In this document: one piece after another, positions 23,291-38,959 of the stretch | How positions within the stretch are numbered: position 1 is the stretch's first letter | Layout of the letters: each line of letters begins with the position of its first letter | Origin: an uncultured beta proteobacterium | GTDB lineage: Bacteria; Pseudomonadota; Gammaproteobacteria; Burkholderiales; SG8-39 | NCBI GenBank assembly: GCA_963719995.1 | Contig: CAVRDW010000005.1 | Location: 2,169,975-2,233,974 of the forward strand | Direction of reading: 5' to 3' | Length of the DNA stretch: 64,000 nucleotides | The notes under the pieces: model-generated | Seen by the model: only the letters and a program-made list of their open reading frames with translations | Database searches by the model: none | Told to the model about the DNA's origin: nothing | Translations under genes and position numbers: made by a program

Positions 23291-23923
23291 ATGCGACCCA
23301 TGAACGTGCTGATCGTCGACGACCACCCGATGATGCTGGAGTATCTCTCCAGCGCCGTGGGCAAGGCGCTGCCGGACGCGGTGGTGCGCACCGCCGGCGA
23401 CCTGCAGACGGCGCTCGAGCGCGCGCGCGAGATCGAGCCGGCATTGGTGCTGGTGGACCTCGGCCTGCCTGGCTGCGGCGGCATCGACTCGGTCCTGCAG
23501 TTCCGCTCGGCGTATCCGCACGTGCCCACCGTCGTGGTGTCCGCGAACGACGACACGCTGTCCGTGCGCGGCGCCCTGGCCGTCGGGGCGGCAGGCTTCA
23601 TCCCGAAGTCCTCGAGCCCGACGGTGGTGGTGAGCGCGCTGCGCCTCATCGCCGGAGGCGGTCGCTACATCCCGCCCGAGGCGCTGAAGGTGGAGCCCGC
23701 CGACAGGCGCACATCCGAGCCGCAGGAACTCCTCACCGACCGCCAGCGCGACGTCCTCTCGCGCATGCTCAAGGGCTCCTCCAACGCCCAGATCGCGAAG
23801 GAGCTGGACATCACCGAGGGCACGGCCAAGCAGCACGCCCACGCGGTGTATTCGGCGTTCGGCGTGTCCACGCGCGCCGACCTGATCCTCGCCGCCTCGG
23901 GACGGTACAGACGTACCGGGTGA
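23291..23923 (+). CDS. NarL/FixJ (LuxR-type HTH) response regulator, with no sensor kinase adjacent
   Basis: The receiver domain reads VLIVDDHPMML...LVLVDLGLPG...IPKSS. The LuxR HTH reads LTDRQRDVLSRMLKGSSNAQIAKELDITEGTAKQHAHAVYSAFGV. Its last 42 nt belong to the 135-bp direct repeat. Confidence 0.85.
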   Translation: MRPMNVLIVDDHPMMLEYLSSAVGKALPDAVVRTAGDLQTALERAREIEPALVLVDLGLPGCGGIDSVLQFRSAYPHVPTVVVSANDDTLSVRGALAVGAAGFIPKSSSPTVVVSALRLIAGGGRYIPPEALKVEPADRRTSEPQELLTDRQRDVLSRMLKGSSNAQIAKELDITEGTAKQHAHAVYSAFGVSTRADLILAASGRYRRTG

Positions 23924-24015
23924 GCCCGGGAAGTGCTGGGTGATTCCGGCGTTATATAACCGCCGGTGGATGGCAGCCTAGGCCGAATTCGCTAGGCTCC
24001 CCTGAGGGGGAGAGC
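23881..24015 (+). promoter_or_regulatory. Direct-repeat copy A: upstream control region and RBS of the T1SS ABC gene
   Basis: It is repeated at 37180-37315. It contains the palindrome CCGGGTGAGCCCGG, the AT-rich TTATATAA (a possible -10) and the RBS GGGGGAG 4 nt (AGC) upstream of GTG 24016. Confidence 0.5.
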
Positions 24016-26110
24016 GTGGCAAACAGGCTGGCCGCGTCGCTCGCAGAGGGAGACTTTGCCTGGTTGGTCGGCAGCCTTTGCCAGATCAACCGGCTGCCGT
24101 TCGACTCGGCACTGCTCTTGCAGCGCTATCCCGCGCCGCATTCCCTGCGGCAACTCATCGAGGCGCTGAACTCTTTCGGTTTCCGCACGGGAGAAGGCGA
24201 TGTCGCGAAGGCGGCGTTTCCTTGCATCGGCTTTCTCGCGGGCGATAAGCGGCAGCCGGCGATCCTCGTCAAGCGGGACGCGGAACGGCTGCTCTATTTC
24301 GTCGCCGGCAGCCAGACGCCGCAGACGGCGCCCGCCGCCTCGCTGAAGGAGTTGTTCGAGCCGGGCGTCATCCTGATCCAGCGCGAGACCGCGGCGGAGC
24401 CGGCGGCGGCCGACGGCGCGCCGGTGGAGTCGAAGTTCGGCTTCCGCTGGTTCTGGGCGGAGTTCCTCAAGCACAAGCGCGTCTGGCGCGACGTGCTCGC
24501 CGCCTCGCTCTTCATCCAGTTGATCGGCCTCGCCACGCCGCTCGGCACCCAGGTGGTGATCGACAAGGTGGTGGTGCATCAGACCGACAGCACCCTGATC
24601 GCGATCGCCGTGGGCCTCGGGATGTTTCTCTTCTTCAACGCTGCAATGGGGTGGCTTCGGCAATATTTGGTCTTGCACACAGGGAACCGCGTGGACGCGG
24701 TGCTGGGGAGCCAAGTTTTCCGGCACCTCCTGCGCCTGCACCTGCCGTACTTCGAGCATCGCCCCACGGGAACCCTGGTGGCGCGAATCCACGCCGTGGA
24801 GACGATCCGCGAGTTCATGGCCGGGGCGGCGGTGTCGCTGATCCTGGACTTCCCGTTCCTCCTCATCTTCGCCGCGGTGATGTTCGCCTACAGCTGGCAG
24901 CTCACGTTGATCGCGCTGGGGATCCTGTTTGTGGTGGCGGGCATCTCCATCGCGGTGACGCCGCTCCTGCGGGCACGGCTCAATCGCCAGTTCCTGCTCG
25001 GGGCGCGGAACCAGGCGTTCCTCACGGAGTACGTGGCCGGGATGGAGACCGTGAAGTCGCTGCAGATGGAACCGCGGCTGGAGGGGCGCTACGACGAGAT
25101 GCTCGCGACCTACCTCGCCTCGGGTTTCGCCACGCGGCACCTCTCCAACACTTACAACGTGATCGCCAACGCGCTCGAGCAGGCGATGACCCTCGCGATC
25201 CTCTGCGTGGGCGCGCTCTTGGTGATGAGGAACGACGGCTTCACCATCGGCATGCTGGTCGCGTTCCAGATGTTCGCGAGCCGCATGTCGCAGCCGATGC
25301 TGCGGCTGGCGTCGCTTTGGCAGGAGTTCCAGCAAGCGAGCATCGCGGTGAAGCGCCTCGGGGACATCATGGACGCGCCGGCCGAGCCCTACGCGTTGAC
25401 GCCCAGCCGAATGGCGCAGGGCAAAGGCGAGATCCGGATCTCCGACTTGAGCTTTCGCTACTCGCCCGAGCACCCCTTCCTGTACCGGAACCTGAACATC
25501 GCGCTGAAGCCTGGCAAGCTCACCGTGCTCACCGGGCCTTCGGGATCGGGGAAGAGCACGCTCGCGAAGCTGCTCCTGGGTTTCTACCAGCCCACCGATG
25601 GCAGGATCGAGATCGACGGGCGCGACATCCGGCATCTTTCCGCCAACGAGCTTCGCCAGTACTTTGGCATCGTGCCTCAGGAAACGTATCTTTTCTCCGG
25701 CACCATCTACGAGAACCTCATCGCGGCGAGCCCGAGCGCGGGATTCGATGATGTGGTGCAGGCGTGCAAGATCGCGGAGATCCACGAAACGATCGAGAAG
25801 CTCCCGAAGGGATACAACACGGAGATCGGCGAGCACGGGGTGGGATTGAGTGGTGGGCAAAAGCAGAGATTGGCGATTGCGCAGGGCGATGCTAAAGCGG
25901 CCGAGGATTCTGATCTTTGATGAGGCAACAAGTGCACTGGATCAGAACGCGGCGGAGCGCTTTGCGCAGACAGTCAACAGGCTCAAGGGAATGGCGACAG
26001 TGCTTTTCATTGCCCACCAGCTACCCCGAGGGCTTGCCGTAGACATTGTTGAGACGCTTAGGGAAGAAAAGGCCACCAGGATGCAGGTGGTTGAGGAAAG
26101 TGACACATGA
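24016..26110 (+). CDS. Type I secretion system permease/ATPase (HlyB/LssB-like ABC exporter) (apparent 1-nt insertion near 25881)
   Basis: It has an N-terminal accessory domain, six TM segments, Walker A GPSGSGKST and the signature LSGGQKQRLAIA. The sequence then shifts to the frame of ORF 25850..26110 (AMLKRPRILIFDEATSALD, Walker B). Confidence 0.9.
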
Positions 26111-26178
26111 GCGCGTGCATGAAAGTTGCGTTGGCGCGCATGTGTAAGGTCAACTCAAGTTACCAGTCGAGGTAGGCG

Positions 26179-37177: not shown

Positions 37178-37179
37178 CA

Positions 37180-37315
37180 CCTGATCCTCGCTGCCTCGGG
37201 ACGGTATAGACGTACCGGGTGAGCCCGGGAAGTGCTGGGTGATTCCGGCGTTATATAACCGCCGGTGGATGGCAGCCTAAGCCGATTTCGCTAGCCTCTA
37301 CTCAGGGGGAGGACC
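37180..37315 (+). promoter_or_regulatory. Direct-repeat copy B: duplicated control region and RBS upstream of a 95-codon ORF and the HlyD gene
   Basis: By my alignment it has 2 mismatches to copy A in the first 100 nt and becomes more diverged afterwards. It retains TTATATAA, RBS GGGGGAGG and a TTG start at the position equivalent to the ABC GTG. Confidence 0.5.
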
Positions 37316-37604
37316 TTGGCAATCCACCTAGCCGATTCGGTGGCTGAACGAGCCGTTACCAGCTCAGCGGCTTGCGGGTCGTCCTGGAGGATCTGCGTTC
37401 AGCATCTGCTCCGTCGAACGCCCCGCTTCGCAGGCGAGGCGCCTGAGACGGCGGTGCGGCGCGGTGGAAAGTGCAATGAAGACGCATGGCTCGAAGGATT
37501 CCATCGCCGCGCGGTTGCTCGATTGCCGCAGCCACGTCGCTCCCGAAGACCGCAAGATCTCGTGATGGTCACAAGCGCTCTCGACGATCGAAAGTTCCCC
37601 TGAC

Positions 37605-38959
37605 ATGCCCGCCGCCAACCCCGCCGATTTCCAGCCCGCACTCCTGCGCATCCAGGACAAGCCCCCTGCGCCGCTCGCCGGCTGGATGCTGCGGCTGCTG
37701 ATCGGCCTTCTCGGCGGCGTTGCGCTCTGGGCGGTGTTCGGGCAGCTCGACATCGTCGCGGTGGCCGACGGCAAGCTCGTGCCTTCGTCGTATCTCAAGA
37801 TCGTGCAGCCGGCCGAGCAGGGCATCGTGAAGGAGATTCTCGTGCGGGAGGGCGAGAAGGTTGCCGAGGGCCAGGTGCTCATCCGCATGGACGCGGCGCT
37901 CGCGCAGGCGGACTCGAAGTCGCTCGCGGCCGACGTGCAGACAAGGCGCCTGGCGCTGCGGCGCATCGAGGCGCAGCTCGCCGGTCGGCCGCTACGTGCG
38001 CGCGAGCGATGATTCGCCCGACGCACTACGCGCAAGCGGCGGCGCAGATGGAGGCGAACGTGCGCGCCTACGAGAACGCGCTCGCGCAGGAGCGGAGCCT
38101 GCTGGAGAAGGCGCGCAGTGATCTCGCCGCGGCGGAGTCCACCAAGTCGAAGCTCGAGCAGGTGCTGCCGCACTACGTCGAGCAGGAGCGCGCGTTCGAG
38201 AAGCTGCAGAAGGACGGATTTGCCGGGCGCGTCATGGCGACCGACAAGGCCCGGGAGCGCATCGAGAAGGAGCAGGACCTGCGCACGCAGGAATTCGTGA
38301 TCCGCTCCAGCCGCGCGCTGATCGCGCAGTCGGAGGCGAAGATCGCGCAGATCACGGCGGACTACCGGCGAGCGCTGCAGGCCGAGCGCGTCGAGACCGC
38401 GATGCAGCTCGAGCGCGCGAGCCAGGAGCTCGCCAAGCACGAGCACCGGCGCGGGCTATTGGAGCTGCGCGCGCCGCAGGCGGGGATCGTGAAGGACCTC
38501 GCGACCTATACCGCCGGCACGGTGGTCGCGCCGGGGACGATCCTCATGACGCTCGTGCCCGAGGGCGACAAGCTCGTCGCCGAGGTGTGGGTCTCGAATC
38601 AGGACGTGGGCTTCGTGAGGAAGGGCCAGGACGTCAAGGTGAAGCTCGCGGCGTTCCAGTTCCAGAAGTACGGCATGGTCGAGGGCAGGGTGCTGCACAT
38701 CAACGCGGATGCGACCGAGGCGCCTTCGCCCAATATGCGTTCGGATGCGCTCGCCGGCCGCGACCGGCCGATGGGGCCGCTCGCGTTTCGGGCGCTCGTC
38801 GAGCTGGGCGCGCAGGAGCTCGCCACGGGGGCCGCACGCCACGCGCTCGCTCCCGGCATGCAGGTCTCGAGCGAGATCCACCTCGGCACGCGCTCGATCC
38901 TGGAATACGTCTTGAGCCCCGTGCAGAAGGCCTGGCACGAAGCGGCGCGCGAGCGCTAG
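37605..38959 (+). CDS. HlyD-family type I secretion periplasmic adaptor (apparent frameshift near 37995-38010)
   Basis: An N-terminal TM segment (LLIGLLGGVALWAVFG) and lipoyl-like motifs (IVQPAEQGIVKEILVREGEKVAEGQVLIRMD) are present. A coiled coil and then LRAPQAGIVKDLATYTAGTVVAPGTILMTLVP follow, with SILEYVLSP near the C-terminus. Confidence 0.9.

Follow-up and report, generated by a model that had tools for sequence, protein, structure and literature searches.

Why should a type I secretion locus carry its cargo gene between, and not beside, the genes of its ABC exporter and its HlyD-type adaptor? The question is raised by a block of genes in a 64-kb stretch of DNA (hereafter the window, in whose coordinates all positions are given) on contig CAVRDW010000005.1 of an uncultured soil betaproteobacterium. 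In the usual textbook picture, a compact ABC–adaptor pair exports a substrate encoded next to it, and a first-pass annotation of the window had attributed the split arrangement to a horizontally acquired island of 11.5 kb. Our analysis supports type I secretion with the cargo gene placed between those of exporter and adaptor, whereas the island was not supported: the gene order recurs in the clade whose ABC genes are closest, and the flanking genes have a host-like GC content at third codon positions (GC3) of 0.85–0.93. The explanation favoured overall, to which we assign a probability of roughly 60% on the sequence evidence, is that the block is a single functional RTX-type type I secretion operon, which would encode a hydrolase-headed cargo together with a periplasmic partner protein.

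Domains were assigned by Pfam and NCBIfam scans of the window's open reading frames (ORFs), which confirmed the order claimed initially, with all block genes from regulator to HlyD on the plus strand: regulator, ABC exporter, lipoprotein, an RTX gene of ~9.5 kb, an MNT/HEPN pair, a 95-codon ORF and HlyD. A NarL/FixJ-type response regulator opens the block (23300–23923, plus strand; receiver and GerE/LuxR helix-turn-helix, matched by Pfam Response_reg and GerE and by NCBIfam response regulator families). It is called with 207 aa in a 98% identical relative of the same species, and is likely the operon's regulator. The HlyB-type ABC exporter follows (24016–26110, plus strand) with both the transmembrane and the ATPase domain of its subfamily (Pfam ABC_membrane 2.4e-47, ABC_tran 4.7e-26); its best NCBIfam match, TIGR01846 (578 bits, E 2e-173), does not reach the curated cutoff of 725. 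Alignment to the HlyB model starts at profile position 38, and the N-terminus, judged by eye against known motifs, may be a C39-like domain without the catalytic Cys. No Pfam match to Peptidase_C39 was obtained at E < 1 in the window's ABC protein, and such a match is on record for a Variovorax ABC homologue.

The lipoprotein gene downstream, whose product is referred to here as the partner (26179–26940, plus strand; 253 residues, lipobox LVGAC with Cys25, no family match), overlaps with its stop the start of the giant RTX cargo gene by 11 nt. The cargo gene itself (26930–36447, plus strand; 9,518 nt) carries HemolysinCabind, HCBP_related and He_PIG domains, and the HemolysinCabind matches in three ORF pieces (E 4e-62, 1e-12 and 2e-44) mark its product as an RTX substrate. 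Its last ~170 residues are free of repeats and would hold the putative secretion signal. Next stand genes for a MntA-like nucleotidyltransferase antitoxin (36552–36845, plus strand; Pfam NTP_transf_2, 8e-13) and a HepT-like RNase toxin (36842–37177, plus strand; Pfam HepT-like, 3.9e-28), followed by the 95-codon ORF (ORF95) and by the HlyD-family membrane-fusion adaptor (37605–38959, plus strand). The last was recognised by TIGR01843 in two pieces (102.5 and 212.7 bits, cutoff 208.65; profile positions 9–108 and 127–422). Related loci, designated by L numbers, were collected among GTDB species representatives (302 head-relative hits, 80 loci kept); with its frames joined, the window HlyD is 54% identical end to end to that of L011, and its C-terminal part is 74% identical to residues 283–449 of the L008 HlyD. 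The locus is a genuine type I secretion locus of the RTX/HlyB class.

With E. coli HlyCABD and Bordetella CyaCABDE the locus has in common the HlyB-type ABC exporter, the HlyD adaptor, an RTX nonapeptide cargo and the C-terminal signal, here putative. Unlike in these systems, the genes of the ABC exporter and HlyD enclose those of cargo and periplasmic partner, and an HlyC-type acyltransferase is missing; moreover, the head is hydrolase-like instead of pore-forming or an adenylate cyclase, and the cargo is about three times as long as HlyA.

The related loci indicate that this layout is not peculiar to the window. Where an ABC gene stands upstream of the head gene, 15 loci have the ABC and HlyD genes adjacent, with ABC proteins 38–56% identical to that of the window, whereas 14 show the order ABC–partner–head without an intervening HlyD, and their ABC proteins are 42–73% identical (all but one at least 54%). 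It is the latter group into which the window falls. L019 repeats the regulator–ABC–partner–head order of the window, and a groundwater metagenome-assembled genome (L011) has the ABC gene, a 934-residue ORF, the partner, an intact 3,041-residue head–RTX gene and HlyD in succession. In a second metagenome-assembled genome (L008), HlyD comes directly after a head–RTX gene of at least 2,749 residues, and at L027 it lies downstream of a partner–head array. Since the order recurs among loci with the closest ABC genes, it is not a recent insertion; the comparison shows ABC–partner–cargo–HlyD to be a trait of the clade and ancestral to it. Within the block, only the MntA/HepT pair and ORF95 are absent from all 80 GTDB-representative loci, and both are present in the same-species 98% contig.

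The composition of the block is uneven. Between about 25.65 and 29.6 kb the GC content is 51–61%, compared with a window mean of 66%, so that the drop reported earlier for 25.9–29.5 kb is real, although it starts ~250 nt earlier than had been estimated, inside the ABC gene. This low-GC patch (25650–29600; GC 0.51–0.61, GC3 0.56–0.70) comprises the 3′ end of the ABC gene, the partner gene, the head and the first RTX block. GC3 is 0.93 in the regulator and 0.91 in the 5′ part of the ABC gene, falls to 0.56–0.61 in the ABC 3′ end and the lipoprotein gene, is back to 0.85 by about RTX residue 1400, and amounts to 0.85–0.88 in the distal 5 kb of the RTX gene and 0.90–0.93 in HlyD. Hence only a patch of ~4 kb looks compositionally foreign. 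Its 5′ edge inside the ABC gene is sharp and its 3′ edge inside the RTX repeats is gradual, which fits homologous recombination with conserved stretches of ABC and RTX sequence as anchors. A possible explanation is that a partner–head cassette of ~4 kb, including the ABC 3′ end, was replaced by recombination with a donor of lower GC content. Divergence between the window and its 98.3% identical relative (L088/L089) rises to 7–10% in two hot spots at 24.6–26.05 and 31.0–31.8 kb. These hot spots, inside the ABC and RTX genes, suggest recent recombination tracts within the operon and recombination that continues.

A second peculiarity is a direct repeat of 133 nt, the two copies of which are 94% identical and spaced 13,299 nt apart. 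Copy 1 (23880–24012, plus strand) takes in the last 14 regulator codons and all of the regulator–ABC intergenic region, including two short palindromes and the Shine-Dalgarno sequence. Copy 2 (37179–37311, plus strand) starts 1 nt behind the HepT stop, and the TTG "start" of ORF95 derives from it. Decayed homology runs on for ~45–55 nt into the ABC coding sequence of copy 1 (29/45 and 35/60 identities), where 35/60 compares with a maximum of 30/60 in 20,000 null trials. The independent 98% relative has the two copies as well, so that they are not an assembly artefact. We infer a tandem duplication of a 13.3-kb unit, from the regulator 3′ end to HepT, the second copy of which was then mostly deleted. 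The non-coding part of copy 2 is far better conserved than the formerly coding part, which suggests that it still serves as promoter or operator; copy 2 would then be a putative second promoter/operator keeping HlyD co-regulated with the ABC gene in spite of the toxin–antitoxin module in between. Rfam recognised no family in the whole window, and the intergenic RNA fold reached a z-score of only −1.8.

The 95-codon ORF listed in the first-pass annotation is present at 37316–37603 (plus strand), but is probably a relic and not a gene: its GC3 is 0.62, it has no homologue in related loci and no Pfam or NCBIfam match, and its TTG start and first codons are a decayed copy of the ABC start. A relic of the ABC 3′ end was also considered for ORF95 and the 290 nt before HlyD, and was rejected after tblastn returned nothing beyond the copied 5′ start of the ABC gene. 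Upstream of ORF95, the MntA and HepT genes overlap by 4 nt and are adjacent in the manner of MntA/HepT type VII toxin–antitoxin modules, with which they share the combination of a nucleotidyltransferase and a HEPN RNase gene, the 4-nt overlap and Pfam scores above thresholds. The pair differs from such modules in scoring below the NCBIfam equivalog cutoffs (MntA_antitoxin 39.5 bits, HepT_toxin 53.5 bits, cutoff 60 for both) and in its position inside a secretion operon, between cargo and adaptor.

Could an acquired island of ~11.5–13 kb, made up of lipoprotein, cargo and toxin–antitoxin pair and possibly bringing its own ABC gene, nevertheless have split a compact regulator–ABC–HlyD locus, leaving the 133-nt repeats as integration scars? 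The repeats bracket the stretch from the ABC gene through HepT exactly, at their spacing of 13,299 nt, and such an event would also agree with the low-GC patch at 25.65–29.6 kb, with an interval of 21.4–41.2 kb free of repetitive extragenic palindromic (REP) elements, with toxin–antitoxin modules at both edges, and with the fifteen related loci in which adjacent ABC and HlyD genes stand upstream of partner and head. The upstream module, HicAB, was recovered as HicB by Pfam in the window and as an annotated HicA in the 98% relative, and the absence of REP elements from the block, likewise noted in the first pass, was borne out between 21447 and 41217. However, the closest ABC relatives (54–73% identity) have no HlyD between the ABC gene and the partner or cargo, and the closest HlyD proteins (L008, 74%; L011, 54%) are encoded directly after a giant head–RTX gene. 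The ABC 5′ part, the distal 5 kb of the RTX gene and HlyD all have a host-like GC3 of 0.85–0.93, and the low-GC patch begins inside the ABC gene and not at a repeat. In addition, the regulator–HlyD locus without an ABC gene that would have preceded the insertion would be non-functional. On balance we consider the island unlikely.

The cargo of the proposed operon has an enzyme-like head. This N-terminal domain (residues 1–640; 26930–28849, plus strand), consisting of an α/β-hydrolase core with helical subdomains, was modelled with AlphaFold from a 93-sequence alignment with a mean predicted local distance difference test score (pLDDT) of 87.6 and a predicted TM-score (pTM) of 0.92. In the model, Ser161, the putative nucleophile (codon 27410–27412), sits between strand 155–160 and helix 162–177, forming a nucleophile elbow with the motif GYSLGG. 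When the model was compared with the PDB using Foldseek, class-3 lipases came out on top (3o0d, 2ory, 5ch8 and 6l7n; probability 1.0, E 3e-4 to 2e-3); among them are Yarrowia Lip2, Photobacterium M37 lipase and a Penicillium mono/diacylglycerol lipase. S161, H165, E350, Q352, R356, H383 and D390 are invariant in the 93 head sequences, as is the GYSLGGH motif, and D381 and H340 are nearly so. NCBIfam gave no match for the head, and a PDB profile search matched the RTX part only, leaving the head region unmatched. The head is thus confidently modelled as an α/β-hydrolase that stands nearest to class-3 lipases, outside the curated families, with "lipase" as a designation at the level of the fold. 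To this extent the lipase-like α/β-hydrolase head, on which the first-pass annotation had staked its proposal, is supported by a confident structural model (residues 1–640), by the Foldseek ranking and by a motif invariant in all 93 homologues.

The family I.3 lipases (LipBCD; Pseudomonas sp. MIS38, 2Z8X, and Serratia LipA, 2QUA) likewise combine an N-terminal α/β-hydrolase with an RTX β-roll and type I export. The PDB profile search, however, aligned 2Z8X and 2QUA in the RTX part only (query 672–750), Foldseek placed fungal and marine class-3 lipases higher, the window protein is five times longer, and I.3 lipases are without an adjacent partner gene such as the one found here. The locus would thus operate in the manner of the I.3 systems, but as the catalytic domains are unrelated by sequence, the cargo is not a member of family I.3.

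Behind the head, the cargo continues with RTX blocks (HemolysinCabind), HCBP_related modules and one Ig-like He_PIG domain; the long RTX tracts and HCBP_related modules postulated from the sequence were confirmed by Pfam. The He_PIG domain (35284–35568, plus strand; Pfam PF05345, E 9e-16) takes the place of what had been called a cadherin-like domain: a domain is there, but of a different, Ig-like family. With the intact 3041-aa L011 protein the cargo is collinear, at 34% identity over residues 1–1678. A central segment of ~670 residues (about 1640–2313; 31844–33865, plus strand), described at first as free of motifs, contains no other recognised domain, but does hold a short RTX block at about 32.87–32.96 kb, with HemolysinCabind and sub-threshold HCBP_related as its only matches. 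It is absent from the otherwise collinear L011 protein, and a search of 5.8 billion proteins returned same-species homologues (95–100% identity), one 50% fragment and RTX-repeat matches. By these comparisons the central segment is nearly lineage-specific.

The size and modular make-up of the cargo raise the alternative that it is chiefly a cell-surface adhesin or biofilm matrix protein of the LapA, BapA or SiiE kind, with the lipoprotein as a retention, release or folding accessory. RTX adhesins are the commonest giant type I substrates, and a protein of 3,172 aa with an Ig-like He_PIG domain, HCBP modules and a weak BapA_N-like Pfam match would fit among them; a periplasmic partner could furthermore recall the control of LapA by LapG and LapD. 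LapA/LapBCE/LapG/LapD systems indeed share with the window a giant RTX protein with Ig-like modules and type I export. In contrast to LapA, the N-terminus of the cargo is a 640-aa hydrolase-like domain and not a retention module, and Pfam detected no LapG (C93 peptidase), LapD receptor or c-di-GMP genes in the neighbourhood; the locus does not count among the LapA-type adhesin systems. The head is common to much shorter secreted proteins, most of its homologues being "enzyme plus short RTX" proteins of 700–1,200 aa in the manner of secreted lipases and proteases, and the partner occurs in several copies at some loci, as is typical of immunity genes. An adhesin is in our view as improbable as the island, and a secreted protein with an enzymatic head remains the preferred reading of the cargo.

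The partner proved to be a member of a large family. Although it had no sequence match in Pfam, NCBIfam or the PDB, 355 homologues were detected, and searching with the family as a profile gave 899 clusters at 50% identity. Nearly all members are stand-alone proteins of 250–320 residues, none of which is named or has a Pfam domain. The model of the partner (pLDDT 83.7, pTM 0.79) is mainly β-sheet, and a fold search against the PDB gave no significant match; the best one, the lipoprotein PelC, had an E of about 0.1 and was rejected as noise.

Members of the family are linked to the head. In 57 of the 75 evaluable loci, no more than 400 nt separate the end of a partner-family gene from the head gene downstream of it, and the overlap of partner stop and head start recurs in several relatives on metagenome contigs (e.g. 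L004 and L007). Two or three partner copies per locus occur at L003 (Variovorax sp. PBS-H4), L027, L049 and L070, and tandem partner–head pairs or several partners are also found at L023. A lipobox was recognised in 11 of the 57 aligned partner members, and a pair of N-terminal hydrophobic segments joined by a K/R-rich loop in 39; C47 and C227 of the partner are invariant. The lipobox or two-helix hairpin anchor, together with the two invariant cysteines, places the partner domain in the periplasm, which it is predicted from sequence to face.

Several loci show further variations of the pair. At L003 (LR594675.1 2868989–2890959), ABC and HlyD genes are adjacent and a 656-aa head homologue without RTX repeats stands between two partner paralogues; next comes a separate RTX protein of 2,608 residues, so that head and giant RTX body are encoded by separate genes. 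The 934-residue ORF between the ABC gene and the partner at L011 (6209–9013) contains two internal repeats weakly similar to the partner family (hhalign probability 62%, E 7.5e-5) and may be a divergent tandem partner. L023, L070, L027, L049, L079 and L086 hold two to four head-related genes, some of them matching only the first ~220 residues, interleaved with partners, and these loci resemble polymorphic effector/immunity arrays. At L007 (87–821), a Y1 transposase gene of the IS200/REP-associated type lies directly upstream of the partner–head pair.

Conserved adjacency, a fitting location and multiple copies, the hallmarks of effector–immunity pairs, were thus all found for partner and head, from which we infer binding and neutralisation: by analogy, the partner may be a periplasmic inhibitor of, or immunity protein against, the head. 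Periplasmic proteins of this kind include AprI/Inh in serralysin operons and Tli for the type VI Tle lipases. AprI/Inh (aprDEF-aprA-aprI; Dickeya inh-prtDEF) would be the best functional precedent, being a small periplasmic protein encoded in a type I operon beside the enzyme; it differs in that there is no sequence or fold similarity and in that the partner-family proteins are larger (about 250–300 aa) and membrane-anchored. Tle/Tli pairs resemble the present family in the combination of a GxSxG lipase-type effector with an adjacent periplasmic partner, often a lipoprotein, and in their arrays of pairs (as at L027, L023 and L070). Delivery here would be by type I secretion, no type VI secretion genes were seen near the inspected loci, and the likeness is one of arrangement, without a claim of homology. 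A literature search found no direct precedent in which an RTX lipase exported by type I secretion has its own immunity protein. That the lipoprotein family and the lipase-like heads form a previously undescribed effector–immunity system working through type I secretion, with RTX-tethered lipases or phospholipases as weapons of betaproteobacteria against neighbouring bacteria or eukaryotic grazers, with a cognate periplasmic inhibitor shielding the producer's envelope, and with partner–head cassettes swapped between strains by recombination in conserved ABC and RTX sequence, is a tentative extension of these analogies, which we hold to be possible but short of probable.

The partner could alternatively be a chaperone, foldase or secretion co-factor that keeps the head competent for export or activates it, comparable to Lif of the family I.1/I.2 lipases. 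Lipase-specific foldases are membrane-anchored periplasmic proteins encoded beside their lipase, and the strict adjacency of partner and head, with overlapping stop and start codons in several loci, would suit such a role. Type I substrates do not fold in the periplasm, however, and the mainly β-sheet partner model shows no fold similarity to the all-helical Lif, while multiple partner paralogues per locus suit immunity better than assistance in folding. A chaperone is in our view still less likely than the island or the adhesin.

All of this presupposes that the genes are intact in nature, since in the window seven single-base frameshifts interrupt the block, one in the ABC gene, five in the RTX gene and one in HlyD. 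The ABC frameshift is one extra A at 25883, which turns the canonical LAIARAML into LAIAQGD. The RTX gene runs through frames 2, 1, 0, 2, 0 and 1, with indel sites at about 31163, 31211, 31581, 33862–65 and 33954–56, and HlyD has one base missing at about 37995–38008. Gene continuity was judged by the continuity of Pfam profiles and by alignment to a relative, as a GC3 frame plot could not separate gene boundaries from frameshifts. The HlyD break was placed by scoring 32 combinations of five indel differences against the L011 HlyD, the longest ORF being an ambiguous criterion for this repair in GC-rich DNA. Repair of the five RTX indels yielded a protein of 3,172 residues with zero internal stops, very close to the roughly 3,170 aa of the first reconstruction.

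Independent copies of the locus point to errors of the assembly. The 98.3% relative, a 77.8-kb ENA metagenome contig (ERZ25039502 contig_76791) collinear with window positions 16178–47174, differs from the window by 35 indels, which cover all ABC and RTX frameshift sites, the amidase sites and the first AMP-binding site. The ABC exporter (697 aa, without A25883), the amidase (821 aa) and the AMP-binding enzyme (555 aa) are intact there. Indels also distinguish the relative around the HlyD site of the window, yet its own HlyD is broken, and frameshifts that the window does not share (32107, HlyD and EamA) affect the relative in turn. Compared with the window, Illumina contigs from soil and sediment metagenomes, some of them otherwise 100% identical to it apart from the indel, contain one more base at both 31163 and 31211/31214 and one fewer at both 33863/33865 and 33956, and two ENA proteins (P0249 and P0250, 95–96% identical) pass both 33.9-kb sites in one frame. 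In total, for six of the seven sites (all but that in HlyD), at least one independent copy preserves the reading frame.

Unrelated genes of the window are likewise broken, at roughly one indel per 3 kb. Split by indels are the Ada/AlkA/Ogt region (10274–13374), two AMP-binding enzymes (14351–15560 and 19675–21343), an FMN oxidoreductase (7278–9284) and a penicillin amidase (39551–41800); the amidase is spread over three frames and one AMP-binding enzyme over two, and the FMN oxidoreductase and the second AMP-binding enzyme are without the N-terminal parts of their profiles. Several of the window's indels fall outside homopolymers (e.g. 25883 and 33862). Indels appear to affect the assembly as a whole, in the way expected of one built from long reads only, and sequence comparison makes it almost certain that the frameshifts arose in assembly; at most, they are confined to this one assembly. 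The ABC and RTX sites being in frame in independent copies, and the repaired frame being free of stops, the locus is not dead, and the cargo is not the pseudogene that real frameshifts would have made of it. A decaying cluster with seven real frameshifts and a dead system and cargo, which the number of frame-breaking single-base indels in three genes, several of them not in homopolymers, might suggest, is hardly credible in view of 9.5 kb without an in-frame stop after repair, of retained high GC3 periodicity, of sites corrected in independent assemblies and in otherwise identical Illumina contigs, and of the same type of indel in housekeeping-type genes throughout the window, with different indels in the relative.

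How would such an operon work? In HlyB/HlyD/TolC systems, an ABC dimer, an HlyD hexamer and a TolC-like trimer export the unfolded substrate in one step, C-terminus first, and extracellular calcium folds the RTX β-rolls. By extension, the response regulator would switch on both promoter copies, and the ABC exporter, HlyD and an unlinked TolC-like channel would export the 3,172-residue cargo C-terminus first. Calcium would fold the RTX blocks outside the cell, with the hydrolase head emerging last, and the head could then hydrolyse ester lipids of competing bacteria or of eukaryotic grazers, or else a polymer from the environment. The partner may bind and neutralise any head that reaches the periplasm of the producer or of a sibling. 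In the window and in the same-species relative the MntA/HepT module lies between cargo and HlyD, and the remnant of the 13.3-kb duplication would leave a copy of the ABC promoter in front of HlyD.

A number of points weigh against this reading or parts of it. No TolC/OEP match was found among the ~45 ORFs of the 64-kb window in a scan that was not exhaustive, in line with the first-pass remark that a TolC-like gene is missing; an unlinked tolC is normal for Hly-type systems, as in E. coli, whereas cyaE is linked in Bordetella. A promoter and terminator scan found no sigma-70-like promoter in either repeat copy, as would be expected of an activator-dependent promoter, and a search for RNA-seq runs returned none. 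The fold matches of the head are modest (TM 0.34–0.41 on the target, over only ~215 of 640 residues), and its Lipase_3 (PF01764) score of 21.2 bits, from profile positions 64–131 only, falls short of the gathering cutoff of 22 that defines membership; head homologues match Abhydrolase_1 equally weakly, and PF26363 is on record for some homologues. Candidates for the acid and the His of the catalytic triad, as judged by conservation, are E350, H383, D390, D381 and H340. The role proposed for the partner is drawn from gene linkage and predicted topology, and the fold search revealed no similarity to any known inhibitor or immunity protein. Moreover, type I substrates bypass the periplasm, which makes the need for a periplasmic inhibitor itself a supposition. 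Finally, the frameshifts may, with low probability, be real and private to this one strain.

The locus combines a little-noticed but conserved gene order, an uncurated family of lipase-like heads, an uncharacterised partner family with a candidate immunity role, and a duplicated promoter region. Together with its relatives, the window represents a recurrent alternative layout of type I secretion in which the cargo is encoded between the two machine genes. Should the partner prove to inhibit the head or to confer immunity to it, common soil and wastewater betaproteobacteria (Accumulibacter, Variovorax, Rhodoferax, Dechloromonas and Zoogloea among them) would apply to type I secretion the effector–immunity logic familiar from type VI lipases. 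The practical lesson is that the "frameshifts" belong to the assembly, and annotation pipelines will have discarded the 3,172-residue protein as a pseudogene.

Outside the locus, a family of 59-nt palindromic REP elements (AAATTGGGGTCAGGGCCGAATT...AATTCGGCCCTGACCCCAATTT) is present in at least 14 copies at 9275–50480, often paired and with none at 21447–41217. A related shorter REP-like element occurs at 45856 and 46233, where window and relative differ by several small indels. One REP pair (41218–41322) lies inside the minus-strand ORF of the penicillin amidase, called as an intact 821-aa ORF in the relative, and is translated in frame. It is located just upstream of the GLGSNNWVV motif that starts the amidase β-subunit, in the spacer peptide normally removed during maturation of Ntn-hydrolases. 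A second low-GC region (55500–63200, 54–60%) harbours a minus-strand cluster of polysaccharide type with two GT4 glycosyltransferases, an asparagine synthase-like amidotransferase, a methyltransferase and several ORFs without a Pfam match; a YjbH–PAP2 fusion protein and a GT4-family sugar-phosphate transferase are encoded just upstream of it. Tandem repeats stand near gene boundaries at 7176–7289 (38 nt, three copies, 89–92% identity) and 3959–4036 (39 nt, two copies, 92%).

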